56,220 nt of DNA from a virus: the UHGV virus genome UHGV-0008794; one strand, written 5' to 3'. The notes beneath the pieces are model-generated. The model was not told the origin of the DNA. It did not search any database and saw nothing but the letters and a program-made list of their open reading frames with translations. Shown one piece after another: positions 1 to 19,425 of the stretch; position 1 is the stretch's first letter; every line of letters begins with the position of its first letter. The translations under genes and the position numbers were made by a program.

Positions 1-74
1 ATGGAGATTTCCTACGTCCCCATTTCATACCAAGGACACCGTAGTGCATTAAATAGTCTGGATATTGGTACATG
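1..74 (-). CDS. MYQYPDYL-family small protein, 5' partial (only N-terminus in window; ATG at 72-74, gene runs off window start)
   Basis: Revcomp of 1-74 translates MYQYPDYLMHYGVLGMKWGRRKSP; nt 15-74 identical to 446-505 and 3483-3542; strong RBS GGAAGGAGGAATC just upstream (75-90). Confidence 0.6.
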
Positions 75-166
75 ATTCCTCCTTCCTATTTAATCTATTT
101 ACTTTTTCGATTTAGGAATTTGATCCAATCGAGATTGTATAATGCTAACTCGCTACGGAGTGTTGT

Positions 167-505
167 TTATAATAATTCAGGACCAGGGTTCTTTTTCTTA
201 TAACTTTTAATAAATTTATCAACATCTTTTGAAGACTTAAAGTTTTGTTTATCCAATTCTGACAATAAAACTTTACCGTAATTAGCTAGAGCCAATTGTG
301 ATTTTCCTTTTCTTATAGCAACACTATCATTAGCCATTTTGCCATAAGAAACGTTCTCTTTTCCAAACGTCTCGAATTTATTAATGTCTCTAGAATACTG
401 GCGCTTAACCTTGGCAACTTTCTTAGCAGCTCGGCGTTCACGTCTACGTCCCCATTTCATACCAAGGACACCGTAGTGCATTAAATAGTCTGGATATTGG
501 TACAT
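167..505 (-). CDS. MYQYPDYL-family small basic protein (112 aa)
   Basis: ORF track; conserved N-terminus MYQYPDYLMHYGVLGMKWGRRR; K/R-rich remainder; upstream CTGAAAATTCAG(AG)7TCAAATC leader instead of canonical SD. Confidence 0.7.
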   Translation of the reverse strand: MYQYPDYLMHYGVLGMKWGRRRERRAAKKVAKVKRQYSRDINKFETFGKENVSYGKMANDSVAIRKGKSQLALANYGKVLLSELDKQNFKSSKDVDKFIKSYKKKNPGPELL

Positions 506-547
506 GATTTGACTCTCTCTCTCTCTGAATTTTCAGGAGAGATTATC

Positions 548-763
548 CTAAACTCTCCAATTATCAGGAAGAATATCAGTTAACTTTAAATCTTTTGCTC
601 GTTTCTTTATCCATTTCTTTACAGCTGGCTTATTAACACCTCTACCATAAGAAGAAATGGCGTTTTTTAAATCAGATTTATTTCGTATAGGATAACCGCC
701 ATCAGACATAGCTTTTCCTTGCTTTGCCAACTTTTCTCGTTCTTCAGAAGAAAACTTAGTCAT
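548..763 (-). CDS. hypothetical small basic protein (71 aa)
   Basis: ORF track; compact spacing to TerL stop; RBS GGAGATAAG upstream. Confidence 0.5.
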   Translation of the reverse strand: MTKFSSEEREKLAKQGKAMSDGGYPIRNKSDLKNAISSYGRGVNKPAVKKWIKKRAKDLKLTDILPDNWRV

Positions 764-773
764 AGCTTATCTC

Positions 774-2519
774 CTATTCAAATGAATCTTTATTAAGTTT
801 ATATGCAATGTAAGCATCCATCATTGCTGCAACCGAGTCGATTTTATCGTCTCTACGCTGTTTTGCAAGCTTTTTGTTACCATTAGTATCTTCAATAGTA
901 ATACAATTACCCATGCAAAATTCCATCAATTCTTCATCAAATAAAAGAAGACGATTCTCAGCCAATTTCTTCAATTCACCTAAAGGAACCGATTCTGTTT
1001 TAGCTCCCTGAATAACTTTTTCTATTCCAAAAGGACCGTTCTCAGTTTGCCATCTCTGAACAAAATCTTTAGCATTATAAGGATCATACCCAAAAGCACA
1101 AACATCATATTCTTTTTCATTTATGAATTGATCGAGATCATCATAGACTTCATTCATATCTAAAGTTACACAATCAAGGACTATCAAAGACCCTTCATTC
1201 ATAAAATCTTCATATTTCAAACGAGTAGCAATAGAAAGTTTATTCATTGTATCAGATGAAATATAGCAACGGGTTTTAACGCCATACCGTTCTTTTGATA
1301 AAGGAAATAAAAAAGTAAAAGCACAGAAGTCATCGCCTTGCGATAAGTCGGCTCCCATAGCACATGGTAATTGCCAAAAATCACGATGACGATGAACTTT
1401 AGTTTCTTCGTAAGTAAAGAAGAATGTAAAACCTTCCATTGGAAGACCAAAACGCTTAGCAAGAATATCGTTACGAGCAGAAGGAACCTTCTCAGCACGT
1501 TCAACATCCAATTGATATGTTTCATAGGTAACGGTTTTACCAATATTTGGAGCAGCCTTCATCCACATTGATGGGTCGGCTACTTCTTGAACACTATCAA
1601 GTTTATAATACCAAATGGAAACATGCGGATTCTCGTATTCGCCTTTTAGAATATCCATAAGTTCCATTTTAATACTGTCGCCAACACCATTACGAACGGT
1701 TCCTTCCGAACTCGTAGCCACAATAAGCCAATCATCTAGTTTAGAAGCGCCTTGTTCTGTTGCACCCACAACATCTTCACGAGTGTTTCCGGATAGCCAT
1801 TCATCGATAGTCGTATACTTAGGTCGACTACCCTGGATCTTATCAATAGACATTGGTCGAGATTCCAAAAGGGAATTCGTAAGAAAGTTTTCAATTCCCT
1901 TTTTTGTTGAAGACAACTTAACTCTATCCGCTTTACTTCCCGTAGTATTCTGAAGAGAACCTTCTGTTAAGAACTTAAATACTGGGCCAAGAGATCTAGC
2001 AATAGCAGTTCTTATTGGTGCCAATACCTCATCTGCTTGAGCAAGCGTTGGTGCCATTGTCATCTGAGTAGTTGTTTCGGTGTCGACTACAAGTCCGTAA
2101 GCTTGAATCGACGATGCATACAAAGACTTGGCACTACCGCGAGAGACGATCAAATATTGTTTATTAATAAGTCGTTTTTTCTTACGTTTAAGAACGTAAC
2201 GACCACCATGACCATCTTCAAAAGGTTCATAAACAGAACGCTCAACGAAATAATACCAACCAAATATCTGTTCGGCCCACAACTTAAATGTATCAAGCAG
2301 ATGAAGAGATGAACCATCGGTTAATGTTAGTTCGTTTTCACAAAACTTAATATAACCTTCAACGGCTTTATCATCGTAATAGTAACGAGGATCTAGAATA
2401 AGATTGTCTATACGATTCATTTCCATTGACACTTCTCGGCATACCGGAATCTCCCCAGCTATAACAGCATCTCGGAATTGCCCGTAATAGATAGGAGTTG
2501 CAGTGTTTGAAAGTGTCAT
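774..2519 (-). CDS. terL: terminase large subunit
   Basis: 584-aa ORF; N-terminal ATPase with Walker-A-like VSRGSAKS; C-terminal acidic nuclease-like region; size typical. Start moved to ATG (M4) with AGGTGA RBS; track M1 is GTG. Confidence 0.75.
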   Translation of the reverse strand: MTLSNTATPIYYGQFRDAVIAGEIPVCREVSMEMNRIDNLILDPRYYYDDKAVEGYIKFCENELTLTDGSSLHLLDTFKLWAEQIFGWYYFVERSVYEPFEDGHGGRYVLKRKKKRLINKQYLIVSRGSAKSLYASSIQAYGLVVDTETTTQMTMAPTLAQADEVLAPIRTAIARSLGPVFKFLTEGSLQNTTGSKADRVKLSSTKKGIENFLTNSLLESRPMSIDKIQGSRPKYTTIDEWLSGNTREDVVGATEQGASKLDDWLIVATSSEGTVRNGVGDSIKMELMDILKGEYENPHVSIWYYKLDSVQEVADPSMWMKAAPNIGKTVTYETYQLDVERAEKVPSARNDILAKRFGLPMEGFTFFFTYEETKVHRHRDFWQLPCAMGADLSQGDDFCAFTFLFPLSKERYGVKTRCYISSDTMNKLSIATRLKYEDFMNEGSLIVLDCVTLDMNEVYDDLDQFINEKEYDVCAFGYDPYNAKDFVQRWQTENGPFGIEKVIQGAKTESVPLGELKKLAENRLLLFDEELMEFCMGNCITIEDTNGNKKLAKQRRDDKIDSVAAMMDAYIAYKLNKDSFE

Positions 2520-2582
2520 GGATTTCACCTACTTCATTATATTTTTTCTCAACTTTTTAATTCCGATTTTACACTACTATTT

Positions 2583-2622
2583 GTCAAGATAGGATTCGAA
2601 CCTATACTCCTTAAGGATTATA
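2583..2622 (-). pseudogene. tRNA-Leu-like 3' fragment (variable arm + T-arm + partial acceptor, no 5' half)
   Basis: minus-sense TCCTTAAGGAGTATAGGTTCGAATCCTATCTTGAC closely mirrors variable-arm/T-arm of the intact tRNA-Leu at 4526-4609; no matching 5' acceptor/D/anticodon arms. Confidence 0.35.
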
Positions 2623-2624
2623 CA

Positions 2625-2996
2625 TTAGATAAACCCTTTGGTTGCAAGAAATACAGCTCCAGCAGTACCAATAGCGCCGCCTGCTACTGTTGCAATAGAT
2701 CCGCGTTTTGACACTTCTTTATTCAATGCGTTTGCATATTTAGCAGTCAATAGTCGGCCATCAGATTTAGCCTTAGATATTACCTGATGATTTTTATTTG
2801 TGTCATGTTTAGCTCCTCCAGCTTTAACATCTTTTCGCCATTGAAGAGCTTCTTCATCAGAAATTCTAGATTCGCTTTTATTAAGACGTTTTGACATTTG
2901 CTTTTTAGACCGACCAATAAGTATCTGTCTACGTCTCTGTCCCCACTTCATGCCTTTAATGCCATGGTGAGCAAGATAATCTGGATATTGGTACAT
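2625..2996 (-). CDS. MYQYPDYL-family paralog with C-terminal glycine-rich TM segment (123 aa)
   Basis: N-terminus MYQYPDYLAHHGIKGMKWGQRRR; C-terminus VAGGAIGTAGAVFLATKGFI hydrophobic; (CT)5 leader upstream. Confidence 0.65.
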   Translation of the reverse strand: MYQYPDYLAHHGIKGMKWGQRRRQILIGRSKKQMSKRLNKSESRISDEEALQWRKDVKAGGAKHDTNKNHQVISKAKSDGRLLTAKYANALNKEVSKRGSIATVAGGAIGTAGAVFLATKGFI

Positions 2997-3020
2997 GATT
3001 TGACTCTCTCTCTGAATGTG

Positions 3021-3542
3021 TTATGCATTAGATAAAAGTTCACCAACGGTAAGACCGGATTTGGTTTTCTTTTTGGCGTATTTACCAAGAATATCGTCTA
3101 CGGATTTTTGCCCAGTATTAACGTAATTATCCCAAGCCTTTCTTTCAGAAATCTCCGACTTTCCACTCGGTATATTTGAAAGGTAATGATCCTCTAAACC
3201 TTCTTGCCATTTTCTATACGACTTACTTCCCTTTTCAAAAGGATTACTTTTATCACGGTCAGCTTGCTTTTTTGCTTTAGCCATACGTCGGTCAAAATCT
3301 TTTTCTGATTTATCAAAAGCTTTAGACCATTTATCACGAGATGATTTTACATTACTCTCATGCCTCGTATATTCGGACGTACCTCGAACAGCAGAATACG
3401 TATCACTAACTTGTTTACTGCGATTGTAAGCTTTATTAGCTACTTTTTTAATATGCTTTGCCGATTTTTTTTGAGCCCTGCGTTGTCCCCATTTCATACC
3501 AAGGACACCGTAGTGCATTAAATAGTCTGGATATTGGTACAT
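3021..3542 (-). CDS. MYQYPDYL-family paralog (173 aa from internal ATG)
   Basis: Track ORF starts earlier (MSVEGGIM..) but GGAAGGAGGAATC RBS directly precedes the MYQYPDYL ATG; first 57 nt identical to other copies. Confidence 0.65.
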   Translation of the reverse strand: MYQYPDYLMHYGVLGMKWGQRRAQKKSAKHIKKVANKAYNRSKQVSDTYSAVRGTSEYTRHESNVKSSRDKWSKAFDKSEKDFDRRMAKAKKQADRDKSNPFEKGSKSYRKWQEGLEDHYLSNIPSGKSEISERKAWDNYVNTGQKSVDDILGKYAKKKTKSGLTVGELLSNA

Positions 3543-3961
3543 GATTCCTCCTTCCACGGACAAGTATCATGCGGTTTACGAACAATAGGATCTGATGGGA
3601 GGAGACTCTGATTACCATAATGAATAGCTTCGTGTGTTTTGTGAGAAACACAAATTACGTTATCCATTGAAAAGATTAACGGATCACGATCTTCGATTTG
3701 TTCGGATGTTATAGGATTAATATGATGGATGATTATTCGCCCAACAATATTATAACCTTCAAGTCCCATATCAAAACCTTGATCACGAATGATTACAAGA
3801 TTGCGAAACGAACGCCATTCTTGCGACCAATACAAAGCTTGGTTAAGATATCGATCAAATCCAAACGTTTCGCTTCCAACACATCCATTCAATTTCAAAT
3901 ACTTAAATCGATCTGTATAGTTCTGGATTTTCATCAACTCAGAATAACTCTTCAATGTCAT
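3518..3961 (-). CDS. HNH homing-type endonuclease
   Basis: HNH signature GLEGYNIVGRIIIHHINPITSEQ...NVICVSHKTHEAIH (His-Asn-His with CxxH); start trimmed to internal ATG (M44) to avoid 150-nt overlap with upstream ORF. Confidence 0.7.
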   Translation of the reverse strand: MTLKSYSELMKIQNYTDRFKYLKLNGCVGSETFGFDRYLNQALYWSQEWRSFRNLVIIRDQGFDMGLEGYNIVGRIIIHHINPITSEQIEDRDPLIFSMDNVICVSHKTHEAIHYGNQSLLPSDPIVRKPHDTCPWKEESCTNIQTI

Positions 3962-4379
3962 TGTCGTCACTTCCACGATAACCACGAAATGCTTTAAGAG
4001 CATCTTCATAAAGTTTAAGGTTATCTTTCTCAGATTCGATCTTCGCGCTCTTTGCTTGAAGAAGTTCGTTTTCACTTTTAAGTTTTTCATTCTCCAATTG
4101 AGTTCGCGTCGAACCGAGTTTAAGATAATGAACTAAAACCGATGGACTTGCAGTGCCATCTAAAATTTGTTTTTCGGCAAGATCGATGGCTGCTGATATA
4201 AGTTGATTCTCTCTTGCTTCAACTGTCAAAGCTGGAGCTCGACGCTTCTTTTTAGCAGTTGCCACCGCTTTTCGCCTCTCTTTCTTGAAATTGTCGCATA
4301 CTTCTATAAAAGAACTTCCGAGCAGAAGACCGCTTTTAATGGGTTTCTTGAAAGGAGAAAAGGAGAACTGGGTCACCAC
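3939..4379 (-). CDS. putative small terminase subunit / DNA-binding packaging protein (basic N-terminal HTH-like region + C-terminal coiled coil)
   Basis: 146 aa; KKKRRAPALTVEARENQLISAAIDLAEK helix-turn-helix-like; leucine-heptad C-terminus; position next to HNH and tRNAs near terL. Confidence 0.3.
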   Translation of the reverse strand: MVTQFSFSPFKKPIKSGLLLGSSFIEVCDNFKKERRKAVATAKKKRRAPALTVEARENQLISAAIDLAEKQILDGTASPSVLVHYLKLGSTRTQLENEKLKSENELLQAKSAKIESEKDNLKLYEDALKAFRGYRGSDDNDIEELF

Positions 4380-4448
4380 TACCAGTTTTTGTTTTTAACT
4401 CGGAAGTTCTTTTATAGAAGTATGAAGGTGTAAACTCCAAAAATATGA

Positions 4449-4524
4449 TTGGTGCGGGGTGACGGATTCGAACCGACAACCAAGAGATTATGAGTCACCT
4501 GCTCCACCCTTGAGCTAACCCCGC
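4449..4524 (-). tRNA. tRNA-Met (anticodon CAT), CCA encoded
   Basis: minus-sense GCGGGGTTAGCTCAAGGGTGGAGCAGGTGACTCATAATCTCTTGGTTGTCGGTTCGAATCCGTCACCCCGCACCA; cloverleaf with anticodon loop CTCATAA. Confidence 0.8.
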
Positions 4525-4525
4525 A

Positions 4526-4609
4526 TTGGTACCTCCGATGGGATTCGAACCCATACTCCTTAAGGAAACGGATTTTAAGTCCGTCGTGTCTGCCGTTCCA
4601 CCACGGAGG
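4526..4609 (-). tRNA. tRNA-Leu (anticodon TAA), long variable arm, CCA encoded
   Basis: minus-sense GCCTCCGTGGTGGAACGG...GGACTTAAAATCCG...TTCCTTAAGGAGTATGGGTTCGAATCCCATCGGAGGTACCA; anticodon loop CTTAAAA. Confidence 0.8.
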
Positions 4610-4631
4610 CGATTATAGGAAGAATCGGTGT

Positions 4632-4994
4632 TTACTTTTGTCGCAACGAATACTTTCTAGTTGAAACGTCGTAAACTACAACATATTTTTCTTGTGCTTT
4701 CTTTATATACGAATTGGTAGTCTTTGCATAATGATTGGCGTATTTTTGAAGTTGTTTTGCATTATCTTGAGCATGTTTGATTTGAGCGTACTTTTGACCA
4801 TACGCAATAGGCCCAGCCTCTCGAGCAGAAGCATCACGTTTTTTTGCTTCTATTTTCCAGGCATTGGCCTTTTGTTGATACCGGTCTGCTTTCTTAGCCT
4901 TACGATTTAATCGTGAAGTTATAACCTTTTTACGTACACCCCATTTCATGCCTGGGATACCGTAGTGCATTAAGTGGTCTGGATATTGATACAT
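4632..4994 (-). CDS. MYQYPDYL-family paralog (120 aa)
   Basis: N-terminus MYQYPDHLMHYGIPGMKWGVRKK (diverged at a few nt); (CT)7 leader upstream. Confidence 0.65.
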   Translation of the reverse strand: MYQYPDHLMHYGIPGMKWGVRKKVITSRLNRKAKKADRYQQKANAWKIEAKKRDASAREAGPIAYGQKYAQIKHAQDNAKQLQKYANHYAKTTNSYIKKAQEKYVVVYDVSTRKYSLRQK

Positions 4995-5152
4995 GATTTG
5001 ACTCTCTCTCTCTCTGAATTTTCAGAGGAAAACCCTATCTCTAAATTCAAAATTCCATTTTGACCCCCGGAGAATTTTTGAAGACCCGCGCGATGAAGGG
5101 AGGGGGTATTTTTTGCGAAACCACCTCTCCCCCCACCTTTGAATAAGATATA

Positions 5153-5386
5153 TTATTCATCAGTAACTTTTTTATAGAAACCATCTGGATTCATTTGAAT
5201 GATTTCATCAATTGCATCTTCGACAGCTTGGTCTTGGGCTAAGTTGCCTAAGTCATTTGAAGTTATCGCAATCCTTGCTAAGTAACCTGATGTACAGTAG
5301 CCTTTTGATTCATCATAATTATACCATTCATCAAACTCTGTAATAGGATTGAAAGGATTATCGACAGTTGTTAGCATCACAGTCAT
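5153..5386 (-). CDS. small acidic hypothetical protein (77 aa), last gene of replication/RNAP operon
   Basis: ORF track; D/E-rich; tightly follows the RNAP-like gene. Confidence 0.5.
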   Translation of the reverse strand: MTVMLTTVDNPFNPITEFDEWYNYDESKGYCTSGYLARIAITSNDLGNLAQDQAVEDAIDEIIQMNPDGFYKKVTDE

Positions 5387-5398
5387 GTCTCATCCTTT

Positions 5399-8098
5399 CT
5401 ATACTGTAAGTGCTTTCTGAATAGTAGATGTTGAGACGCCAAGACTATCAGCTATCTCAGCAAGGGTATAACCATTAGCCTCAAGAGCTTTAGCTTTCGA
5501 TACTTTGCCTGGGCTCATGCCTTTAAACTCTCTAGGCATAGCTAACTGTTTAAGAGTATCTAGATCCGAGTTGTTGATGATCTGCTTAAGTTTGTTAGAA
5601 GAGATAGCACCAGCTTGAATAGCTTCCCATTCAGAAGACGTTATCTGTATCTGTTGTTTACCAGCCCCCGTTTTAGCACGAGCCTTAATAAGAGCTCTGG
5701 ATTTAAGCTTTTTAATATCATCACTATCTAGATTAGGATTTGCATCTCGTACAGCTTTAACTTCGGCATTGGCTAATAGCTGGGCCTTTCTTTCTAAAGG
5801 TCTATTCTTTAATGCTGTGTTAAGCTTAGCATCCAAAGAAGAAACCTCTTTGTTATACTTCTTCTTAGCCTCAGGAGAATACGGAATTGGCTTGGTATTA
5901 CGAGACTGGATACGGGCTTGATTTGCTAGTGATTTTAATTTATTAGCATGTTCAGCATATACACTTTCAATCATAGTTCCAGAAGACAAAGAATATGCAT
6001 CACTTGTGTCCGCCATCTTTGTAGTCTTCTGTAAACGAAGAACTTCTTTCCCTGATTTATTCGTGTATGTTTCGCCAGTCTCTCGAAATATCTTTTCACC
6101 ACGGTTATAACGCGTCAATTCTTCAGGAGTCATATTCTTAGTGCTTGTAATTTCTTTTCTTACAGGCACTCGTTTATCACCTGAAGCTCGAGAAATAAGA
6201 GTTGAAGCTCCTGCATTTTCTCGACCTTGATATTTCTTCTTCAAAGCGCGAATATTATTATCAATCTCCGATTGTTTATAATTTAAATTATGCTTCTCGG
6301 CATCAATAACAACCATTGAATGACGAACTGCTGCCGCAATTTCATTCGGATCCGCACCTCGAATAGTCATATCAGTAATTAGATTTGAAACATCGCCCAT
6401 TTGACGTTGTTTATTAAATCCAGAACCTTTATCGCCAGTACGAATCATTCCAGGATATGCTGGATATGAAACCTTAGGATCAAAATCTTTCAAACCTTTC
6501 AATGGATCTGACGTTCGAATATTCGCACCACTCATTGGAATAACAAGAACTGTATCACCATCAAAGTCCGCACCAGACAAACGCTCAGCAACTTTAGGAT
6601 TAATACCGACAGCATCTTTAGCATTATGAATAAGACTATTAGCCGTTTTATGCTTATTATTCACTGTAAGTTCAGGAATCTCAAATGTTCCTCCATGAGG
6701 ATATCGAACCAAAGCTACTCGTTCACCATTACGAAATGAAGGAGCATAAATCTCGGTGTCTTTCATATCAGGGAATGGTAAAATAACTTTGGATGCCTGA
6801 CGAGGAAGACCGGCAGCTTTTAGATGAACAGCAGCTGAATCGCAACCATCAGCAAATTTTTCAAGAAGCTGTTGTTTGATAATGGGATTCTCTAATTTTA
6901 TAATCTCATTATATTCTTCAGCTTTAAGATCATAAGCCAATTTCAATTGCTTTTTTGCAAGCATGGGAGACTGTTTAGATAACATCTGAGAAGATAAGCT
7001 TTTTCGCCAAACGTTCCAATCGCCTTCTTCGTTAACGATATTTAAAGCCGATTGCTGTTTTTTACCATTCTTGTCGATGTAATATCGCTGAGCCATGACT
7101 AAGCGATCTTCACCCTTAATGGTTGCGCCAAAAGGATTATCAGAATCTTTCTTCATAGGTTTTAAAACACTATGGTCTTTTTCTCCGAGCATCGGAGTTC
7201 CTTTAGATTTGTTAGTGTTAAAGACAATGTCAACGCCTTCGGGCATGTTATCGCTATACATAGCCATACCCTTAATATAATGAGTGCCATCAACAGCAAT
7301 TCGAACTTGAGCATAACGAGCGTTACCTAAGGAAATATCATCAACACCTCGACGAAGCTCAATAACGCCATCTTTATCGATGCCACCATCCTCTTTGTAG
7401 TTAATTTTAACTCGCTTAGAGGATATACTTACTGGAGCCTTTAAAGAATCATATGAAGTTCCTTTATCGCTCGAATGATATCCAGGAAATTCAATTTTGT
7501 CTCGATTCTTAGAAACTTCAGAATATGTAGTACCTGGTTTAGCAAGAACCATGATCGATGTTTTTTTACCAGTGCCCATCTGTTCGGTCTGAATATAATG
7601 TCGAGTATATCCTTCTTCTTCCAATTTACGAATTGAATTATCCAGAACGTTACGACTTACACCCATTTGATTCTCAACGCCACCGCCAACATCAATATAA
7701 CCTTTCTTGTCAACAGCTTTTTTAAGCACATCGGCAGTCATGGTTGTCTTGTTTGCGCGATCTGTAGCTTGAGGTTTCAAATAATTACGAACAGTAGATT
7801 CATTAGTTCCCATTTTTTCAGCAATAGCGACATTAGAATATCCTTTTGCTTTTAACTTTTGAGCTTCTGAAACTCTAGCTGCATATACTTCATTTCGAGC
7901 ATTAGAATATTGAGAACGATATTGTTTAACGGTTAGACCGCATGCGTCAGCAACTTCTTTCTCGCTAAGTCCGCTTTTCTTTAATTCATTAGCATAATTA
8001 TAAAAGTCCGAATCGCGCTGATATGGATCATCACCGCTTCCCCACGGATATCGACCGGAATGGCGCTTAGTGCCATAATGATATAGTTCATCAAACAT
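5399..8098 (-). CDS. putative single-chain two-barrel (multisubunit-type, YonO-like) DNA-dependent RNA polymerase with HTH modules
   Basis: 899 aa; VRYPHGGTFEIPEL...SGADFDGDTVLVIPMSG matches the universal beta-prime active-site segment (RQPTLHRLGIQAFEP...NADFDGDQMAVHVPLS); several sigma-region-4-like HTH stretches at N- and C-termini; start ATG overlaps upstream stop (TAATG). Confidence 0.5.
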   Translation of the reverse strand: MFDELYHYGTKRHSGRYPWGSGDDPYQRDSDFYNYANELKKSGLSEKEVADACGLTVKQYRSQYSNARNEVYAARVSEAQKLKAKGYSNVAIAEKMGTNESTVRNYLKPQATDRANKTTMTADVLKKAVDKKGYIDVGGGVENQMGVSRNVLDNSIRKLEEEGYTRHYIQTEQMGTGKKTSIMVLAKPGTTYSEVSKNRDKIEFPGYHSSDKGTSYDSLKAPVSISSKRVKINYKEDGGIDKDGVIELRRGVDDISLGNARYAQVRIAVDGTHYIKGMAMYSDNMPEGVDIVFNTNKSKGTPMLGEKDHSVLKPMKKDSDNPFGATIKGEDRLVMAQRYYIDKNGKKQQSALNIVNEEGDWNVWRKSLSSQMLSKQSPMLAKKQLKLAYDLKAEEYNEIIKLENPIIKQQLLEKFADGCDSAAVHLKAAGLPRQASKVILPFPDMKDTEIYAPSFRNGERVALVRYPHGGTFEIPELTVNNKHKTANSLIHNAKDAVGINPKVAERLSGADFDGDTVLVIPMSGANIRTSDPLKGLKDFDPKVSYPAYPGMIRTGDKGSGFNKQRQMGDVSNLITDMTIRGADPNEIAAAVRHSMVVIDAEKHNLNYKQSEIDNNIRALKKKYQGRENAGASTLISRASGDKRVPVRKEITSTKNMTPEELTRYNRGEKIFRETGETYTNKSGKEVLRLQKTTKMADTSDAYSLSSGTMIESVYAEHANKLKSLANQARIQSRNTKPIPYSPEAKKKYNKEVSSLDAKLNTALKNRPLERKAQLLANAEVKAVRDANPNLDSDDIKKLKSRALIKARAKTGAGKQQIQITSSEWEAIQAGAISSNKLKQIINNSDLDTLKQLAMPREFKGMSPGKVSKAKALEANGYTLAEIADSLGVSTSTIQKALTV

Positions 8099-8655
8099 TA
8101 CGCTTCCTCCGCTCTCAACTCGTTAATGCATTTATCAAAAGTGATAATCTTGTCCATAAGATGGAAAATATCATTTGGATCTGGAACTTCAATCACAACA
8201 TTGCCTGACTGATATATTCGCAATTCAGCTTCGATTTCATTTGGTTTGACATCGTACTCAAGACAAAAGTATGCCATATAAATTTCCAACTGAACCATGG
8301 ATACTTCACTAACACCAGTTTTCAAATCATGAATTCGAAGTTTGTTGTTTTTGAAAGATATGGCATCAGCAGTTCCAAATGCATTATTGGAATAATATAA
8401 AACTTTCTCGGGCTCCATTTTAAAGCCAATTGCATCGTTGACATAAGAATTCAAAGTCTGTCCAGTATCTTCGAGTTTAATCCCCAAAGAAATAAGTGAT
8501 GCAGCCAATTCATGAAGTTGAGTTCCACGCATTGCAGCCATATTATTAGAATATACACGAATCAATTTGTCTTCATCATAGTTTACCCAAGCATGATTAC
8601 TAGCACTAAGAAACGAATGTTGACCGCTAAGATTTGAATGATTGTTCCAACGCAT
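8098..8655 (-). CDS. putative nuclease (possible PD-(D/E)XK fold)
   Basis: 185 aa; D...IHDLKTG...E.Y motif arrangement; located in nuclease/helicase/polymerase cluster; weak. Confidence 0.3.
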   Translation of the reverse strand: MRWNNHSNLSGQHSFLSASNHAWVNYDEDKLIRVYSNNMAAMRGTQLHELAASLISLGIKLEDTGQTLNSYVNDAIGFKMEPEKVLYYSNNAFGTADAISFKNNKLRIHDLKTGVSEVSMVQLEIYMAYFCLEYDVKPNEIEAELRIYQSGNVVIEVPDPNDIFHLMDKIITFDKCINELRAEEA

Positions 8656-8920
8656 CTAAAACTTCCTCCTTGTTTTCTGGAAATATAAATGCCGAGAACG
8701 ACATTTGATTCATTAGGTCAACATAGTAATCTTGATTTGGTTGATGAGAGGCATTGCCAGATCTTTTACACTCCAACGTTGCCCATCGATCGTTCCACAA
8801 AATAAGAAGATCGGGTATACCTTGATAATCTCCAGGATCAAGTTTTAAAACCATACATCCTGGAAATATATATTGCAACTCTTTCTTCAACTTTGTTTGA
8901 AAAGCACTTTCCTTAGCCAT
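8627..8920 (-). CDS. VRR-NUC domain nuclease
   Basis: 97 aa; GIPDLLILWNDRWATLECKRSG matches VRR-NUC G-PD...E-K core. Confidence 0.65.
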   Translation of the reverse strand: MAKESAFQTKLKKELQYIFPGCMVLKLDPGDYQGIPDLLILWNDRWATLECKRSGNASHQPNQDYYVDLMNQMSFSAFIFPENKEEVLDALEQSFKS

Positions 8921-8993
8921 AAAAACACCTTTTAAATAAAAAGACGAAGAGTAGAAGAACCTTAAATCAAGGTCTTATTCTACTCCTCTTCTA

Positions 8994-10262
8994 TTATAGC
9001 ACATGATTTTTCTGCGAATCAAGATTCTCTATAAAAATGGACTCATTGAAGTTTTTCTTAGATTGAATCGCTCTGAATATACTTGCGTCAATCGATGAGT
9101 TAGATCTCAGTCGATAATAATACAGATCGGAATATGGAGTATTGATCCTATCAATACGACCAGCAGCCTGTTCCATAATTTTGTATGAGTAATTCAATGA
9201 GTAAAATACAATCACATTGGTTTCCACACAATTCCAACCTTCAGCGCCGGCTGTATACTGAACCAAATATACCCATCGATCGCCATCTAAAATAGCCTCA
9301 TGCTTATGCCCATTCCACTCGGACCAAGGAATTTGATTGTTCTCTAATAGTTCTCTCAAGATTTCCAACTCATAATCGAAATTGTAGAATACGATTACCT
9401 TAGAATTCAAATTGAGAATACTAAGCAGTTCTGCAGTTCTAGAAATATCTGAATTAACAATTTTTCTAAAAACAAGACATGCTTCTCCAGCATTACGAAT
9501 TGGTCTTCCTTCAAATACGTGCCATTTATCTTTTGAAGCTTGCTTATAAAGCTCCTTGTCATAATCAACTAGTATATCATTAAAATGTCTAATAGCTTTC
9601 TTTTGATATTCCATAGTAACAACAATTTGCTTTCGATATTCTTCTAATCGATGACAATTAATGTAACGTTCAATTTTAGGATATTTGGAAAATCGACTAA
9701 AGACAGCATGTTCTCTAAGAAATTCAGTTTTATTTTTATAGAACCCATTCGCTAAGAACACCGGAATATAATCAGACCAAGTATCACCTGGCGTAGCAGA
9801 AAGCAGTATCCAATGATTGCTTTTAGAAATCTTGAGAAACGACTTAACCCATTTACCAGAACCGACTAAACGCTGTTCGTCAAATATAAAGAACGAATCT
9901 TTAACATTAACATATTTTGCGATATTATTCCAACTATCGATAACCAATTTTGTTCCCCAATAACTATCAGTCTTAGATAATAAAAATGGAAGACATTCTT
10001 GGTCCCACTCGCAAGTATTTCGTTTACGAGCAGTTGTAATAATATACAAATCTTTTGGTTTAGTCATTGGTAAAAGTTCGCCATCTTGAATTTTGCCTCC
10101 GCATTCATGACAAAAATAATAGGCGATGGAAGTTCTGGACTTGCCAGATCCGACCCCACCACATAAGATGGAGCCAGACCTTAGCTCGTCCATTGCTTTA
10201 CTCTGATGCGGATATAAACTAATATTCATCCGAGATATCAGCATACTTGTCGGCAAATTCAT
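8994..10262 (-). CDS. SF2 (DEAD/SNF2-like) helicase
   Basis: Walker A GGVGSGKS, DEQR Walker B (FIFDEQRL), motif III LLSATPG; start uncertain (track 10271 is TTG; ATGs at 10262 and 10229). Confidence 0.65.
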   Translation of the reverse strand: MNLPTSMLISRMNISLYPHQSKAMDELRSGSILCGGVGSGKSRTSIAYYFCHECGGKIQDGELLPMTKPKDLYIITTARKRNTCEWDQECLPFLLSKTDSYWGTKLVIDSWNNIAKYVNVKDSFFIFDEQRLVGSGKWVKSFLKISKSNHWILLSATPGDTWSDYIPVFLANGFYKNKTEFLREHAVFSRFSKYPKIERYINCHRLEEYRKQIVVTMEYQKKAIRHFNDILVDYDKELYKQASKDKWHVFEGRPIRNAGEACLVFRKIVNSDISRTAELLSILNLNSKVIVFYNFDYELEILRELLENNQIPWSEWNGHKHEAILDGDRWVYLVQYTAGAEGWNCVETNVIVFYSLNYSYKIMEQAAGRIDRINTPYSDLYYYRLRSNSSIDASIFRAIQSKKNFNESIFIENLDSQKNHVL

Positions 10263-10680
10263 CTTCGACAAGCGTCACATACATATTCTTTACGTAAGCC
10301 TTAACGCCAACCTTACCATTCACTTCCCAATTATAAGGGCGAATAATAAGATCAATATTCTCAATTTCAGCATAATCAAGAATATCAATAGTATCGCTAT
10401 TCAAACGATTCTTATGATGGCCAGTAATCGTAAAGATATTGGGTTCGATATTATCAAAACTTACTGCAACCTGAATATAAGGAGTCGCCTCATCACCTTC
10501 CTCACGAGGACGAAGGAATTTAACATTCCAACCCTCATCAATCATTTGATCTGCCAAATCCTGATCTAGTCGAACACAGAAATTACGCTTACCCGCAGCA
10601 TTGAACTTACTAGCTTCACCACGGAAATTACGGAACATGATATGAGCATTCTCAATTGCAATATTACCATTAACAGTCAT
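10219..10680 (-). CDS. putative ssDNA-binding protein (DUF2815-like)
   Basis: 153 aa; overall pattern and position between helicase and polymerase resembles phage DUF2815 SSB-like proteins; acidic C-terminal tail DEFADKYADISDEY typical of SSB tails. Confidence 0.35.
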   Translation of the reverse strand: MTVNGNIAIENAHIMFRNFRGEASKFNAAGKRNFCVRLDQDLADQMIDEGWNVKFLRPREEGDEATPYIQVAVSFDNIEPNIFTITGHHKNRLNSDTIDILDYAEIENIDLIIRPYNWEVNGKVGVKAYVKNMYVTLVEDEFADKYADISDEY

Positions 10681-13600
10681 TACTTTGCCTCTTTCTCAAA
10701 TATACCTTTTACCAACTCGCAATCTTTGTGCCAAACACATTGGGCACATTGATCGAGATTCAAATCTTTAACATCCGGTTGCGAACACCACGGTAGAATA
10801 TGACTTTCGTCTACATCGCTACTAGAAATATCGCTGAAGATCTCAAAGTCACCATAGCTCGAAATGTTTTTCTTAGCTTCATCAACAAAATTCACAAAAT
10901 ATGATTCATCGATGTCTTCAAGCTTGTTACAATTCTTAACGGTCTCGGATTCAAGCCAACGATATCCTTTAGTCCCAGTAGCAGAATGATACTTTCCATC
11001 TTTCTCACGCACCAATACTCCGCCGCCGCAACCAGACTTAATCGGACAGAAAGAACCAACCTTACCAATGAATGAATATGCATGACCTTTAGCAATCATA
11101 TTCTTTAAATTGTCATCAGAAATATCGCTGAATTCTGGATCAAGCCGCTTCGATTTCTTTTCTTGATCAGAATCGAGCTTTGCGTTAAATATACGATTGG
11201 TCAATTCTTTCTCTTCAGCAGAAACATCAGGAAGAGATTCATTCATATCCAAATACAAAGCGCTCGTCACAGATTTAGTTGTACAAAGATCTTCGAATCG
11301 AATAGGATCTTTAGAAAATAATGTCTTAAAGACATATGGTTCTTGAAACTGTGCACCAGTAGCTGTCCAACTTGTAGTTACTTTCTCACCAGTCGGCAAC
11401 TTAAATTCATGTTCGCCATCATTGTATCGAGCAATATAAACCGCATCGTTAACAATACACATTCGATCATATGTCGCTTCATGTTCGAAATTATAACCGT
11501 ACTTCTTGCCAAACTCCATGACGAAATCTTTCATTTCTTCCGTTACATTGGCAAGTTTGATAGAATCGGTCTTGATATGAACAACAGTCCAACCCTTATC
11601 CATACAAGCATTCTTCAAATCAATCATAAACAAAGCTCCACGCTTTGCCACGATATTATCAACATTACGAGGATCCCTAAACGGATTCTCGAACTTAGCA
11701 GAAGTCAATCCATAAATAGAATTGACAACTGTCTTCAAAGCATTTGATAAATCTTTGTTGGTAAAATCAGCGGTTCCGTCTTTAAGCTTTTCTACGAACG
11801 GAACCAACTTACCATCCAGAAGATCATCAAGCTCGTTATAATCTTTGTGCTTGATCAAAATACGCGACTTCTTAATATCACTAAATCGCTTCGTGTATTT
11901 ATCTCCAAACAAATTTAACTGCTCAATGCTCGTAGGATGCATGGATGCAATGTCGAACAACCCAACATTCCAATACATTCCAGGTTGAGCATAAACATAT
12001 CCGCCTTCACCGGTTTCCTCACCACGATAATAGCTCTTACCATGATCGAAAGTATATCCCGGAAACATCTCAGACAGATCAGTATATACAAACTGAGATT
12101 GAGGATGACGATCATTACCAAATATAATTCGAGCAGAATGCTGATTGGTTGTATCGTTAACACTCAGACCAGAAAGTTCTGCAAGAATTTGACGAGCAGT
12201 CCAGTCACCAGAAAGATGATTGAATACGGCTTCAGTAGAAATAACATCGTTATCACAATACTCTGCAACTTCTACCCATCGATCTTCCGGAACCGGTTGA
12301 TCCCAAGGAAGACCAAGCTCTTGATGATGAAGACCAAGCTCAATTTCCCACTTCTTCAAACTCTTCTTATTTACGGCTGATGCAAAATCATAAACATCGG
12401 TATAGGAAATATTGTAAGCTTCACCAAAGAATGCATTGCGACTGCCACTGACAATCTTTTGACTCAGATTATACAGCTCAATGTTACTGTAACCCAAATA
12501 TCGAGCATACAAAATGTGATTATCGTAACGACGACAATTAAAGCCAACAAGCTTCGCATTCATCAATTGCTCAACTTCTTCAGGAGTTGGATTAATCATA
12601 CGAACACATTGGGTATTGTCTCCTTGATATTTCCAATTGATCAAGAACAAATTAGGAAATACCTCAACATCGAAAAACACCAAACGATCGTCATTGTAAT
12701 CATTAACAAAATCACTTGGTGTCTCCGACTTAAAATGCATCTTGGCTACAAGCTTCAAACAATAATCAGCTTGGTGAGAGCTATTGTTTGCGAACACCAT
12801 GATCTTCGGACGCATATCTGTGACATCGTATGGAAGTCCAGATTCATATGCTTCCTCAAGAATCTTGTAAATAAAATCAACACTCGGTTTTGTACCTGGA
12901 TGATATTCCTTGTTAAGATTCTTCTCAATCAGAGTTCGCAATGCTCGTTCGGACTTCACGCTACTGAAGTTGAGCATCTTTTCTCCTTTCAAAGGCAACC
13001 CACTATTAATATGAGCCACAGGAACATCATTACAATAAGACAGCCTACGCCTTAATGAACTATTCCCGTTAAATACTTTAATCTCGATTCCTTCAGAATA
13101 TACACAACTCAATTTAGCGACATCACCATCGTAAATATAATGAAGATGAACTCCAGCACCGCCTTTGCTAAATTCACCATAGGTTGTTGGCCACTTTGAA
13201 GCAGCTTCCAAATTTAACTTAGCCGACTTCTCTCCATTCTCCCCTTTAATATCAAAGTCAATCACAATATGATTCAAAGGCGGTTTTACATAATGAACAC
13301 GAGTCGTTTGAATATCTTTCAGCGTAGTTTTAACGCTATCCCATTTACAAGAAGGAGTTTCTTTCTTTGTTGCATATTGAGCCAAACAATCTGCTAATTC
13401 GATATCCAACAACGATTCAGTCTTATCGAATATTAATCCGCATTTTTCTTCTTTGGTATCATTCGGTTCAGTTTTAATAGCTCCAGGAACCACATTAGAG
13501 AATTTCTCTCTTAAAAATCCACCATAATAATTTCGAACCTGTTTGCTATCATCACCAATTCGAATAATTGTATCGAATGTACGAAAATAATTCTTTAGCT

Positions 13601-14804
13601 CTTCACGGAATCGATATTTCGGCATTTTGTATTCAACTTGTGCTTCGTCACAATATGTTTTATACAAATCATATGCTTGCTTCAATGTTACACCATCTTG
13701 TTTATCAAAGATCAAATACGAATCTTCAATAAAATTGAAGAACACATCAGTCTTGAACATCATGTCTACGGGACGATAGGAATTATAGTAATTCTTACCC
13801 ATTTCCTTATAAACATCAAGACAATGTTGTGCAATAGCACCAAGCTCGAATGGAATCTTATCCATCAGATATTGATATCGGGAAGCTTCGATTTTCTTAC
13901 CGCTCGGACGAACATCAATCAAACGTCGAATAATACCAGACTTAGCGTCGGTAATCTTAACCGGACGATTCGTAGCCATGAAAAGAAAACAATTCAACTT
14001 AGAAGTATAACTCGCCTTATACTTTTCATTCATTATCATCTCTTCGTGAGAAATAATTGAATTAAGTTTCGTATTATCTTCAATTCGACTCAGATCACCA
14101 TCATGCTGAAGTGCAACCAAAGGATTCGATTTAAATGCTTCAGTAGAAAACGTATTATTGCTAGAAGCAAGAGCCTTGGCTTCGAATGCCGTATAATATC
14201 CTTCGAACAACATTTGAATGATGTTCAATATGGTGGACTTACCAGCACCGGCTTCGCCATACAGCACAATGAATTTCTGAATATCTCTACTGTCGCCAGA
14301 AACAACAGCTCCTATTCCCCATTCGAGCTTTGCTCTTTCCTCTGGTTCATAAAGAGTTCCAATTATCTCATCGAAAGAGCTATAATCTCCTGCTTCCAAA
14401 GGATATGACAACTTGTGTGAGGCGTAATCGTCTTTCTTAACTTCCGTATTAGAAAATATAAGCTTGCTATCCAATTGCTTATAATTATCCGGAAGATCTT
14501 TAACCCAACGGCAATAAGATTTCCAAGATCCAGAACCATAAGATGAAGCCCAAGCAATCTGAATATCTGAACTAGAAAACAAATCGACACATTTGTCATA
14601 CTCATCTTGAAGATCTTTATCGATAAGTTGACGAACAAAATATTCATCCTTAGACCAAAGTCCAGTATTCGGATCATACACTGCATAGAACGATTTGCCA
14701 CGAACCATAAAATCGCTGAAGCCGCCAACCTTAAAATCCGGGTATATCTCAAGAGTCTTACCCTTATCCTTCATTCGACGTCGAATTGTGTAAAAATCCA
14801 TCAA
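10680..14804 (-). CDS. fused replicase: P4/D5-type SF3 helicase NTPase + primase-polymerase (AEP)-like domain + family B DNA polymerase with 3'-5' exonuclease
   Basis: 1374 aa; Walker A GEAGAGKS with P4-primase C-terminal pattern; VIDFDIK...GGAGVHLHYIYDGD AEP-like; Exo I FFDVEVF, Exo II YCDNDV; PolB motif A FDIASMHPTS, motif B KTVVNSIYG, motif C HIKTDS. Confidence 0.75.
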   Translation of the reverse strand: MMDFYTIRRRMKDKGKTLEIYPDFKVGGFSDFMVRGKSFYAVYDPNTGLWSKDEYFVRQLIDKDLQDEYDKCVDLFSSSDIQIAWASSYGSGSWKSYCRWVKDLPDNYKQLDSKLIFSNTEVKKDDYASHKLSYPLEAGDYSSFDEIIGTLYEPEERAKLEWGIGAVVSGDSRDIQKFIVLYGEAGAGKSTILNIIQMLFEGYYTAFEAKALASSNNTFSTEAFKSNPLVALQHDGDLSRIEDNTKLNSIISHEEMIMNEKYKASYTSKLNCFLFMATNRPVKITDAKSGIIRRLIDVRPSGKKIEASRYQYLMDKIPFELGAIAQHCLDVYKEMGKNYYNSYRPVDMMFKTDVFFNFIEDSYLIFDKQDGVTLKQAYDLYKTYCDEAQVEYKMPKYRFREELKNYFRTFDTIIRIGDDSKQVRNYYGGFLREKFSNVVPGAIKTEPNDTKEEKCGLIFDKTESLLDIELADCLAQYATKKETPSCKWDSVKTTLKDIQTTRVHYVKPPLNHIVIDFDIKGENGEKSAKLNLEAASKWPTTYGEFSKGGAGVHLHYIYDGDVAKLSCVYSEGIEIKVFNGNSSLRRRLSYCNDVPVAHINSGLPLKGEKMLNFSSVKSERALRTLIEKNLNKEYHPGTKPSVDFIYKILEEAYESGLPYDVTDMRPKIMVFANNSSHQADYCLKLVAKMHFKSETPSDFVNDYNDDRLVFFDVEVFPNLFLINWKYQGDNTQCVRMINPTPEEVEQLMNAKLVGFNCRRYDNHILYARYLGYSNIELYNLSQKIVSGSRNAFFGEAYNISYTDVYDFASAVNKKSLKKWEIELGLHHQELGLPWDQPVPEDRWVEVAEYCDNDVISTEAVFNHLSGDWTARQILAELSGLSVNDTTNQHSARIIFGNDRHPQSQFVYTDLSEMFPGYTFDHGKSYYRGEETGEGGYVYAQPGMYWNVGLFDIASMHPTSIEQLNLFGDKYTKRFSDIKKSRILIKHKDYNELDDLLDGKLVPFVEKLKDGTADFTNKDLSNALKTVVNSIYGLTSAKFENPFRDPRNVDNIVAKRGALFMIDLKNACMDKGWTVVHIKTDSIKLANVTEEMKDFVMEFGKKYGYNFEHEATYDRMCIVNDAVYIARYNDGEHEFKLPTGEKVTTSWTATGAQFQEPYVFKTLFSKDPIRFEDLCTTKSVTSALYLDMNESLPDVSAEEKELTNRIFNAKLDSDQEKKSKRLDPEFSDISDDNLKNMIAKGHAYSFIGKVGSFCPIKSGCGGGVLVREKDGKYHSATGTKGYRWLESETVKNCNKLEDIDESYFVNFVDEAKKNISSYGDFEIFSDISSSDVDESHILPWCSQPDVKDLNLDQCAQCVWHKDCELVKGIFEKEAK

Positions 14805-17852: not shown

Positions 17853-17882
17853 AACAAACTCCTTTCATAAAGTTTCCACTCT

Positions 17883-17906
17883 ATTATAGGATATGTTATT
17901 TCTGCG
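17883..17906 (-). promoter_or_regulatory. conserved early-type promoter motif copy 1 (CGCAGA-N12-TATAAT, minus sense)
   Basis: minus-sense TTTCGCAGAAATAACATATCCTATAATAGAG about 30 nt upstream of ATG 17852. Confidence 0.5.
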
Positions 17907-18093
17907 AAAGTTGTGGAAGTTTCTCTTTACCGATCAAAATATCATAGAGATATTGAGCATCTTCATCTTGAAATGCATTAATTACTTCCGGAACAGGCTT
18001 AGTCGGATCTTGCACGCCAATGCAAATAAGATTGACCTGTCCATTAAATTTTCGATCGGTACCAATTACAAAACTATCGGGTTTATCAGACAT
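17896..18093 (-). CDS. hypothetical small protein (65 aa)
   Basis: ORF track; a further 48-52-aa minus-strand ORF (about 18081-18236, MGIQMSINIKDQRDW...) lies upstream and was not in the track. Confidence 0.4.
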   Translation of the reverse strand: MSDKPDSFVIGTDRKFNGQVNLICIGVQDPTKPVPEVINAFQDEDAQYLYDILIGKEKLPQLSQK

Positions 18094-19158: not shown

Positions 19159-19425
19159 TTACTTTTCGACCTCTCCGCAAATCATACTAACCTGCTTACT
19201 AGCTTCTCTGCCGCAAGCATCGCCAACAATCGCTCCTACTAGTCCTGTACCAACAATATACGCACCTTTAATAAAGGCATTCGCATTCGCTGGAGCAAAG
19301 ACTCCTAGAACGGTTCCAGTCATGATACTTCCGCAAATATTGCCCGTAATTTCAACAGCATTTTTCACAGCATTAACGTCGATTGCAAACATAACAAACT
19401 CCTTTTCGCAAGTTTTCTCCGTCAT
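19159..19425 (-). CDS. small glycine-zipper membrane protein (88 aa), trio member 3
   Basis: GTGLVGAIVGDACGREA and ITGNICGSIMTGTVLGVFAPANA GxxxG repeats; own promoter motif upstream. Confidence 0.55.
   Translation of the reverse strand: MTEKTCEKEFVMFAIDVNAVKNAVEITGNICGSIMTGTVLGVFAPANANAFIKGAYIVGTGLVGAIVGDACGREASKQVSMICGEVEK

Follow-up and report, generated by a model that had tools for sequence, protein, structure and literature searches.

Single-chain two-barrel RNA polymerases (RNAPs) are studied as pared-down models of the universal transcription enzyme, of which they may be relics, and few of them have been characterised, namely QDE-1, YonO of the Bacillus prophage SPbeta, gp66 of crAss-like phages and the enzymes of phage P23-45. 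YonO is a proven DNA-dependent RNAP that transcribes late genes and is not a virion protein. The related non-virion enzymes gp64 of P23-45 and gp62 of P74-26 are described in the P23-45 paper as products of a pre-early gene whose transcription depends on a separate virion enzyme. A further group has been recognised by computation: the protein of Lactococcus phage 1706 appears in a list of five YonO-like two-barrel families, with YonO itself assigned to a separate one (Ruprich-Robert and Thuriaux, 2010; PMC2919709), and the same protein was presented as the signature of a supercluster of phages of Actinobacteria and Firmicutes, with helix-turn-helix (HTH) motifs at both ends, an HHpred match to RNA-dependent RNA polymerases (RdRPs) and a DxDGD loop (Koert et al., bioRxiv 10.1101/842583). 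Promoters, virion location and gene fusions are absent from both papers. The window considered here, i.e., the whole 56,220-nucleotide (nt) stretch of the virus genome UHGV-0008794, contains on its minus strand an ATG-initiated open reading frame (ORF) whose 899-amino acid (aa) product, hereafter the window RNAP, had been read in an original prediction made from the letters alone as a phage-encoded, YonO-like polymerase.

The window RNAP is a new member of the computationally known, experimentally uncharacterised family typified by phage 1706 orf75. The family is not novel, because both its putative two-barrel RNAP nature and the HTHs at its ends had been noted before (PMC2919709; bioRxiv 10.1101/842583; PHROG 4291); what is new is not its two-barrel identity but the geometry and conservation of a promoter-like element and several clues that relate the protein to the virion. 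The protein is very probably a two-barrel RNAP homolog with a functional active site. The reading favoured below, at a probability of roughly 0.55, is that of a virion-delivered enzyme for early and middle transcription, rather than a late polymerase of the YonO style.

Fold, catalytic motifs and relatives of the window RNAP

The catalytic-loop peptide SGADFDGDTVLVIPMSG, quoted in the original prediction, is present at aa 508-524 (nt 6527-6577), and the R-x-P peptide VRYPHGGTFEIPEL at aa 464-477 (nt 6668-6709); R465 precedes D511 by 46 residues. In an alignment of 41 homologs with 40-83% identity to the query, from which all conservation reported here was read, R465, P467, H468, G470, F472, E473, P475 and the three aspartates of the DFDGD loop (D511, D513 and D515) are invariant. 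Since the catalytic and R-x-P residues are retained at this degree of divergence, the motif match goes beyond chance. The arginine and the proline are invariant in the two-barrel superfamily, in which they are equivalent to R446 and P448 of Rpb1 (PMC2919709), and R465-Y-P467-H468 was aligned with LRSPH of YonO in hhalign.

An AlphaFold2 model built on the 41-sequence alignment (predicted local distance difference test, pLDDT, 80.4; predicted template modelling score, pTM, 0.61) was compared with the PDB by Foldseek and matched QDE-1 (E 6e-10), RDR2 of maize and Arabidopsis (1e-6), P74-26 gp62 (4e-6) and, further down, the virion RNAP (vRNAP) of crAss-like phage phi14:2 (8e-3), followed by beta'/Rpb1 chains; isolated double-psi beta-barrels (DPBBs) were matched as well. 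The structural neighbours in BFVD are other two-barrel RNAPs of phages and giant viruses, and all significant structural neighbours of the model are two-barrel polymerases. In the predicted secondary structure, the DFDGD loop sits immediately before the last strand of a six-strand barrel at aa 435-521 (strands 435-441, 449-451, 460-464, 476-479, 496-499 and 516-521), which corresponds to the beta'-type DPBB with a Mg-binding DxDGD loop that defines two-barrel enzymes. The original prediction had made itself dependent on a DPBB fold, on a barrel context for DFDGD and on polymerases as the best homologs; none of the contrary outcomes was encountered, and its claim that the phage encodes its own non-canonical RNAP is supported. 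The alignments with the single-chain enzymes QDE-1, gp62 and RDR2 span 371-444 residues, exceeding one barrel, and no beta/Rpb2 chain appeared among the top structural-match lists. The beta-rich region that precedes the catalytic barrel contains invariant residues of its own (H273-like, K276, G277, D290, N294, T295, N296 and K297), its GTHYIKG segment presumably resembles GRHGNKG of the beta subunit, and the region is proposed, from the model, to be a beta-like DPBB with K276 and K297. Connector helices lie between the two barrels in the model. The C-terminal region, with long helices at 563-579, 584-603, 709-733, 749-786 and 792-810 and many invariant residues, including H593-S-M-V-x-I-D599, K602 and H603, is probably the equivalent of the bridge helix and clamp.

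At the sequence level, searches of the PDB with the single protein, the 41-sequence profile and a core-only profile returned HTH matches or none, and no polymerase; therefore, homology to polymerases rests on the predicted fold. Similarly, the full protein matched only HTH domains in Pfam and NCBIfam. The Pfam RdRP family (PF05183) gave 12.2 bits with the window core, below the gathering cut-off of 23.8 bits, and 17.4-23.2 bits with relatives; it was the top sub-threshold match in all five family cores tested, in each case from the DFDGD loop onward and over profile segment 426-~530. The match to phrog_4291, which is named 'RNA-dependent RNA polymerase', is full-length (E=0, 1261 bits, aa 3-897 against positions 10-905 of 909), and this label, used by PHROG and RefSeq, is probably wrong.

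The window RNAP is placed in a clade with the QDE-1-type RdRPs, YonO, the crAss gp66 virion RNAP and the P23-45/P74 phage RNAPs, and comparison with each of these delimits what is particular to it. QDE-1, representing the PF05183 enzymes together with RDR2, is the closest solved fold, yet the identity is only ~11-12%; the match covers no counterpart of the HTH and winged-helix modules of the window RNAP, and the setting here is a double-stranded DNA phage with candidate promoters. QDE-1 itself is not known to have such modules. YonO is, like the window RNAP, a phage-encoded single-chain two-barrel protein of ~840-900 aa, and its RxPH and DxDGD motifs align at the same 46-residue spacing. However, when a 10-sequence core profile was compared with YonO in hhalign, no significant match resulted (probability 0.2%, E 0.36, over 86 columns around RxPH...DxDGD), and a tblastn search of the phage collection with the window RNAP did not reach SPbeta. 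By its sequence, then, the window RNAP is no member of the YonO family, and the term 'YonO-like' in the original prediction is apt for the broad clade and not for a direct relationship, the nearest solved fold being that of QDE-1. The crAss-like phi14:2 gp66 (2180 aa) and N4 vRNAP are far larger than the window RNAP, and the N4 enzyme is T7-like rather than two-barrel. In P23-45 gp96, the polymerase is fused to the tape measure protein, whereas in the present family the fusion partner is the portal, in a side branch only, and residence in the virion is an inference. Relative to the non-virion enzymes P23-45 gp64 and P74-26 gp62, the window RNAP adds terminal HTH modules.

The three HTH-like stretches named in the original prediction are present at aa 44-63, 86-107 and 876-897. 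Pfam matches support two of them, the second (Sigma70_r4_2 at 85-107, E 7.8e-12) and the third (HTH_23, 5e-11, and HTH_3, 9e-9, at 870-897), and the first lies within a helix-turn-helix part of the model (N-terminal helices at 32-41, 46-52, 57-84, 89-96 and 100-106) and inside a match to phrog_664, 'DNA binding protein' (37-122). The second N-terminal HTH is similar to region 4 of sigma-70. Together with a winged helix at aa 134-186 and the C-terminal HTH, the two N-terminal HTHs bear out the suggestion that DNA-binding modules are built into the polymerase. They are preceded by a predicted disordered peptide in which G9, S14, G15 and R16 are invariant and H7, Y8, Y17, P18, G20, S21 and G22 are at least 90% conserved; this peptide is a candidate signal for protein-protein contact or capsid targeting.

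The family is large. A tblastn search found full-length relatives with 40-54% identity in 250 phage records (99-100% query coverage in 249 of them), from phages of Arthrobacter, Gordonia, Streptomyces, Curtobacterium, Rhodococcus, Microbacterium, Lactococcus (1706, P092 and P118) and Faecalibacterium (FP_oengus), most of them labelled merely 'helix-turn-helix DNA-binding domain protein', and the catalytic core recurs in at least 695 clusters (50% identity) at E<=1e-30. Phage 1706 orf75, the 'putative RNA polymerase' of FP_oengus and the actinophage proteins are like the window RNAP in domain order, in the HTHs at both ends and in full-length homology, and the 1706 and actinophage relatives share with it the neighbouring genes, the location at the right genome end and a promoter motif in the genome. 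The window RNAP is at most 54% identical to any cultured-phage protein, with no difference in kind. Synteny is likewise that of the family, with a RecB/Cas4-type exonuclease gene upstream, a small phrog_4303 gene downstream and a position at the right genome end. The latter gene, which encodes a 77-aa protein with a TTVDNPFNP...GY motif, comes after the RNAP gene in relatives without exception, among them 1706 (orf76), ReqiPoco6 (gp107), HotFries (gp57), FP_oengus and L025, and its product is a candidate cofactor or packaging chaperone.

The TCGCA-N14-TATAAT element as a candidate promoter

The CGCARW-N12-TATAAT motif, which the original prediction had called an early motif, is real: it has 10 matches in the window against 2.1 expected, all on the minus strand. 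A position weight matrix (PWM) derived from it (consensus T-CGCA-R-N-W5-CAY-N4-TATAAT-RAR) identified nine sites scoring 36-41, exclusively on the minus strand between 8987 and 30748 and with none in the structural half of the genome. A sequence of this TCGCA-N14-TATAAT type is TCGCAATTTTTTCACGTCTTATAAT. Six of the nine sites lie 28-31 nt upstream of the ribosome-binding site and start codon of a small gene, two precede non-coding units of ~110 nt, and the ninth stands before the endonuclease-exonuclease-RNAP operon. In phage 1706 and in Streptomyces phage HotFries, unprompted counts of k-mers gave the same architecture, e.g., TCGCATGTTTTACATATACTATAGT and TCGCACGTTTTACATGCTTTATAGT; in 1706 the upstream element reads CCACA or TCACA instead of TCGCA. 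The pattern YCRCA-N14-TATRRT occurs 8 times in the window (0.53 expected), 6 times in 1706 (0.76) and 4 times in HotFries (0.07), counts that no shuffle attained, and it is found also in ReqiPoco6 and six relatives from IMG/VR, on the coding strand only and never on the opposite strand. No nucleotide similarity connects the genomes in this comparison, whose GC contents run from 33 to 61%.

In a promoter of the sigma-70 type, the -35 and -10 hexamers are 16-19 nt apart. By contrast, the upstream element described here ends 14 nt before TATAAT at all sites in all genomes, the canonical -35 position shows no base conservation, and only one of the nine sites (that at 8993) scores as a sigma-70-type promoter. 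A promoter that is constant across phyla and has a non-host geometry points to a conserved phage-encoded reader. In the ortholog map of Koert et al. (bioRxiv 10.1101/842583), the RNAP is the sole transcription-type protein that is conserved across the whole phage group, which makes it the candidate reader, and recognition of the TCGCA-N14-TATAAT sites by this polymerase is judged slightly better than an even bet. Thus, the division of labour implied by the original prediction, in which the host would read the motif early and the phage enzyme would act late, is probably backwards, because the motif is conserved across phyla with a geometry that is not that of sigma-70. A distinct motif shared by the late genes was looked for by 9-mer counts, by inspection of intergenic regions and with a low-stringency CAY-N5-TATART pattern, and no second, late-specific motif was found in or before the late region.

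Directly after the site that precedes the polymerase operon, at 8921-8992 on the minus strand, lies a leader with a hairpin and a U-run (free energy -22.7 kcal/mol, z -3.7, attained by none of 200 shuffles). The same order of promoter, hairpin and T-run is found in the relative L013 (6743), and a similar one in ReqiPoco6 (L002:5036). A simple terminator scan of 1-10000 found none on the gene strand and missed this hairpin, the loop of which is too long for the scan. The leader may act as an attenuator, gating the polymerase operon and, once the cos ends are joined, the late genes as well.

The two promoter-driven non-coding units, which had no Rfam match and no significant structure, stand in tandem at 30050-30336 on the minus strand. 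Their promoter cores are identical, and the ~110 non-coding nt behind each core end in a T-run. The first unit has a T-arm like that of a tRNA, GGTTCGAGTCC, and an odd 'tRNA-???' call by ARAGORN at 29975-30047 adjoins the pair.

Proposed virion delivery and the alternatives to it

Three observations fit a virion-delivered enzyme: the label of the 1706 protein, the position of related cores beside the portal, and the early position of the promoters. In the record of phage 1706, orf75 is deposited as a 'structural protein'; the depositors reportedly identified virion proteins by sodium dodecyl sulphate-polyacrylamide gel electrophoresis (SDS-PAGE) and liquid chromatography-tandem mass spectrometry (LC-MS/MS). 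ReqiPoco6 gp106 carries the same label by similarity. Proteins that reside inside the capsid and are ejected are usually encoded directly after the portal or fused to it, and two of the 150 best cluster representatives, each of ~1800 aa, show such arrangements. P0476 (1789 aa, L019:1866-7235) comprises a Phage_portal domain (aa 76-389, 102.7 bits), a linker of ~600 aa and a C-terminal RNAP core that begins with the winged helix and stops just short of the C-terminal HTH, and it is encoded between a gene of TerL size on one side and those for protease and capsid on the other. P0452 (1809 aa, L020:229-5658) is encoded in the same kind of head module, where it begins at the stop codon of a portal gene; it has a core 78% identical to that of P0476, shares its linker and includes a phrog_8314 segment. 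The linker contains no known domain, and both portal-linked variants, which come from high-GC metagenomic phages, lack the N-terminal peptide and all terminal HTHs. In L019 and L020, the gene that follows the portal-linked RNAP starts with a homolog of the 77-aa partner (43% identity, E 6e-19); therefore, the polymerase and its small partner moved together. On this evidence, the chances that the window RNAP is delivered by the virion appear evenly balanced.

The favoured model, in which DNA dependence, promoter recognition, virion residence in this phage and read-through are all inferred, may be formulated as follows. The enzyme would be DNA-dependent and would recognise promoters without a sigma factor, by means of its own HTH and winged-helix modules. 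The nine TCGCA-N14-TATAAT sites would be its promoters, driving the small early genes, both non-coding RNAs and the genes for replication, its own operon among them, and transcription would proceed rightward on the single coding strand through the early and replication genes. Late in infection, a few copies would be packaged into the capsid and later ejected with the DNA, so that early transcription would start without the host RNA polymerase, as it does for N4 vRNAP, crAss gp66 and P23-45 gp96. The late genes, which lie on the same strand and have no promoter of this kind, would be reached by read-through past the 8921-8992 leader and across the joined cos ends or, alternatively, be read by the host enzyme. 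It is also tempting to speculate, though this more specific picture is decidedly tentative, that a sigma-independent two-barrel RNAP of ~100 kDa, with a 77-aa partner and a 25-bp promoter that has hardly changed between phages of Actinobacteria and Firmicutes, resides inside a siphovirus capsid and is loaded via the disordered N-terminal peptide (L-x-HYG...WG), related to the DUF7211 motif of small virion proteins encoded by the same phage, the portal fusion replacing the peptide in some lineages. The N-terminus (LxHYG...WG) weakly resembles the DUF7211 motif, and since the DUF7211 Pfam model does not match it and the reverse hidden Markov model (HMM) search gave E values of 0.01-1, a shared signal is a lead only.

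Several points weigh against the favoured model. The literature search reached no enzymatic, proteomic or transcriptomic work on this phage or any member of the family, and the beta-like barrel and its lysines are proposed features. FP_oengus has no strict-pattern match in the 14.7 kb examined, and the perfect TATAAT makes it possible that host sigma-A acts at the -10 element, aided by a factor bound to TCGCA. Two other proteins of the replication region are also labelled 'structural protein' in the 1706 record, and orf75 could have been a DNA-bound contaminant. Each portal architecture rests on one single Logan contig (runs SRR12949875 and SRR26502144), L019 and L020 represent a different head-module lineage with a portal that is not similar to that of the window, and IMG/VR contained unfused cores only and no portal-fused relatives. 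In addition, the position of the gene at the end of the replication block, behind a promoter of its own type, would also fit a middle-expressed enzyme that does not enter the virion.

The alternative that comes nearest to the original prediction is a non-virion late polymerase in the manner of YonO, with host sigma-A RNAP reading the TCGCA...TATAAT sites early and the phage enzyme reading the packaging, head, tail and lysis genes. YonO, the only characterised non-virion enzyme of the clade from a bacterial phage, does transcribe late genes, the promoters contain a perfect TATAAT, and the hairpin/U-run leader could delay expression of the RNAP operon. On the other hand, the search for a second repeated motif within or ahead of the late region found none, the promoter geometry is identical in the phages of Streptomyces, Rhodococcus and Lactococcus and in the low-GC window phage, with a 14-nt spacing that is not that of sigma-70, and the virion annotation of 1706 orf75, the portal fusion and the adjacency to the portal point elsewhere; a late role is accordingly regarded as unlikely. 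More improbable still is a function in replication or recombination, i.e., promoter-independent copying of single-stranded DNA or RNA in the manner of QDE-1, producing primers, R-loops at the origin or RNA for the helicase, single-strand annealing protein (SSAP) and nucleases. The nearest solved structure, QDE-1, has both RdRP and single-stranded DNA-templated activity, the sub-threshold Pfam RdRP match is the sole catalytic family match, the database name is 'RNA-dependent RNA polymerase', and the gene is embedded among those for a helicase, SSAP and VRR-Nuc-like and RecB/Cas4-like nucleases. However, the phage already has a 1374-aa primase-polymerase, four DNA-binding modules of a sequence-specific type are hard to explain without promoters, and the conserved promoter, the relocation to the head module and the virion label are left unexplained.

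A purely DNA-binding or structural role, such as that of a regulator, a cos-binding protein or a packaging accessory in which the barrel core is a catalytically irrelevant scaffold, would agree with the HTH-protein name in most GenBank records, with weak matches of the HTHs to the small-terminase families Terminase_5, phrog_7067 and phrog_309, and with the lack of an annotated small terminase nearby. The catalytic triad and R-x-P are, however, invariant across lineages at only ~40% identity, the portal-linked variants keep the core and drop every terminal HTH, and the phrog_4259 protein (3939-4379) is a plausible small terminase, so that this role is considered highly improbable. The window RNAP was also tried as the missing small terminase itself, on the weak Terminase_5 and phrog_309 matches, and was rejected: its catalytic core is the conserved part, and the phrog_4259 protein is the better candidate.

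If the more specific, tentative picture of a sigma-independent RNAP inside the capsid is true, the window RNAP and its relatives would be the first promoter-specific two-barrel RNAPs with built-in sigma-like domains and would enter the capsid by a packaging route new for an enzyme. Virion delivery and portal fusion would provide a new example of enzyme packaging in siphoviruses. Recognition by the HTH modules would mean that a two-barrel enzyme can carry promoter specificity in itself, with no need of sigma or TFB-type factors, and could offer a compact orthogonal expression system across Gram-positive phyla. The comparative evidence makes the family directly testable, since it supplies a defined promoter, candidate sigma-like modules, a partner and a virion-delivery hypothesis, and its ~900-aa enzymes with a candidate promoter occur in phages that are easy to grow, on Streptomyces, Arthrobacter, Gordonia and Lactococcus.

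Gene neighbourhood and further features

The phage that carries the RNAP gene is metagenomic and has 38.6% GC; a megablast search of the phage collection found no genome close to the window, and public metagenomic assemblies contain an identical 899-aa gene call (P0001). Nearly all window genes lie on the minus strand, like the RNAP gene, the ATG of which overlaps the stop codon of the upstream exonuclease gene, with GGAGG 7 nt 5′ of it. The order on this strand is primase-polymerase, SSAP, helicase, VRR-Nuc-like endonuclease, RecB/Cas4-type exonuclease, RNAP, HNH and TerL, followed across the window ends by portal, protease-capsid fusion and tail genes, as expected from the earlier placement of the gene at the end of the replication operon and next to the packaging genes. 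The RNAP gene thus occupies the right genome end, adjoining a probable cos site and the packaging genes (Table 1).

Table 1. Coordinates and supporting evidence for the window RNAP gene, its domains, neighbouring genes and promoter-like sites
Feature	Position (nt)	Strand	Evidence or remark
RNAP gene, PHROG 4291 / phage 1706 orf75 family	5399..8098	minus	ORF, phrog_4291, fold matches
Conserved N-terminal peptide, aa 1-30, LYHYGTKRHSGRYPWGSG	8009..8098	minus	predicted disordered, pLDDT <50
Two N-terminal HTH modules, aa ~32-66 and ~75-110	7769..8005	minus	Pfam Sigma70_r4_2, GerE, HTH_28; phrog_664 37-122
Winged-helix-like domain, aa ~134-186	7541..7699	minus	
First beta-barrel region (proposed), aa ~225-360, GTHYIKG (K276) and FNTNK (K297)	7019..7426	minus	beta-rich segment, invariant residues
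Second barrel, beta'-like DPBB, aa ~430-525, R465-x-P467-H	6524..6811	minus	motifs, invariance, strands
Catalytic loop, D511-F-D513-G-D515	6554-6568	minus	
C-terminal helical and beta region, aa ~563-855	5534..6412	minus	long helices, invariant residues
C-terminal HTH, aa ~863-898	5405..5512	minus	Pfam HTH_23, HTH_3, HTH_38, HTH_11 at 869-897
77-aa partner gene, phrog_4303	5153..5386	minus	E 1e-30, immediately downstream of RNAP
Primase-polymerase	10680-14804	minus	1374 aa
TerL	774-2528	minus	
Promoter-like site before the endonuclease-exonuclease-RNAP operon	8987..9020	minus	PWM score 36.5
Promoter-like sites	30715-30748, 30303-30336, 30158-30191, 24950-24983	minus	PWM
Promoter-like sites	21700-21733, 20047-20080, 19418-19451, 17877-17910	minus	PWM

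The intergenic region at 4995-5152 contains G/C-rich inverted repeats (GGTGGGGGGAGAGG...CCCCCTCCC, CGCGCGGGTC and CCGGGGGTC) as well as half a promoter, TTTCGCAAAAAATAC, that lacks TATAAT. In relatives, the physical genome end comes just after the RNAP gene and the small gene that follows it, and the stretch is therefore probably the cos region. Between this region and the HNH and terminase genes, tRNA-Met(CAT) and tRNA-Leu(TAA) genes are encoded at 4450-4610 on the minus strand. The protein of 146 aa encoded upstream of HNH on the same strand (3939-4379) belongs to phrog_4259, and its homologs HotFries gp1 and 1706 orf4 are encoded at the left genome end; it is the plausible unannotated small terminase subunit mentioned above. 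Among the structural genes, all on the minus strand, a head maturation protease is fused to the major capsid protein (617 aa, 52145-53998), a kind of fusion described for Arthrobacter clusters AM/AU, and a tape measure protein of 2267 aa is encoded at 42216-49019.

Five small DUF7211 paralogs cluster around HNH and TerL: four are encoded on the minus strand at 4632-4994, 3021-3542, 2625-2996 and 167-505, and one straddles the window ends (near 73; 56215-55919). They share a 25-residue N-terminal motif, MYQYPDYLMHYGvxGMKWGxRR, which is found also in 1706 orf7, deposited as a virion 'structural protein', and in HotFries gp5, just upstream of TerL. Immediately upstream of two of the DUF7211 genes, at 506-547 and ~4995-5030 on the minus strand, lies a near-identical 32-nt element, CTGAAAATTCAGAGAGAGAGAGAGTCAAATC, which consists of a short palindrome and a GA run.

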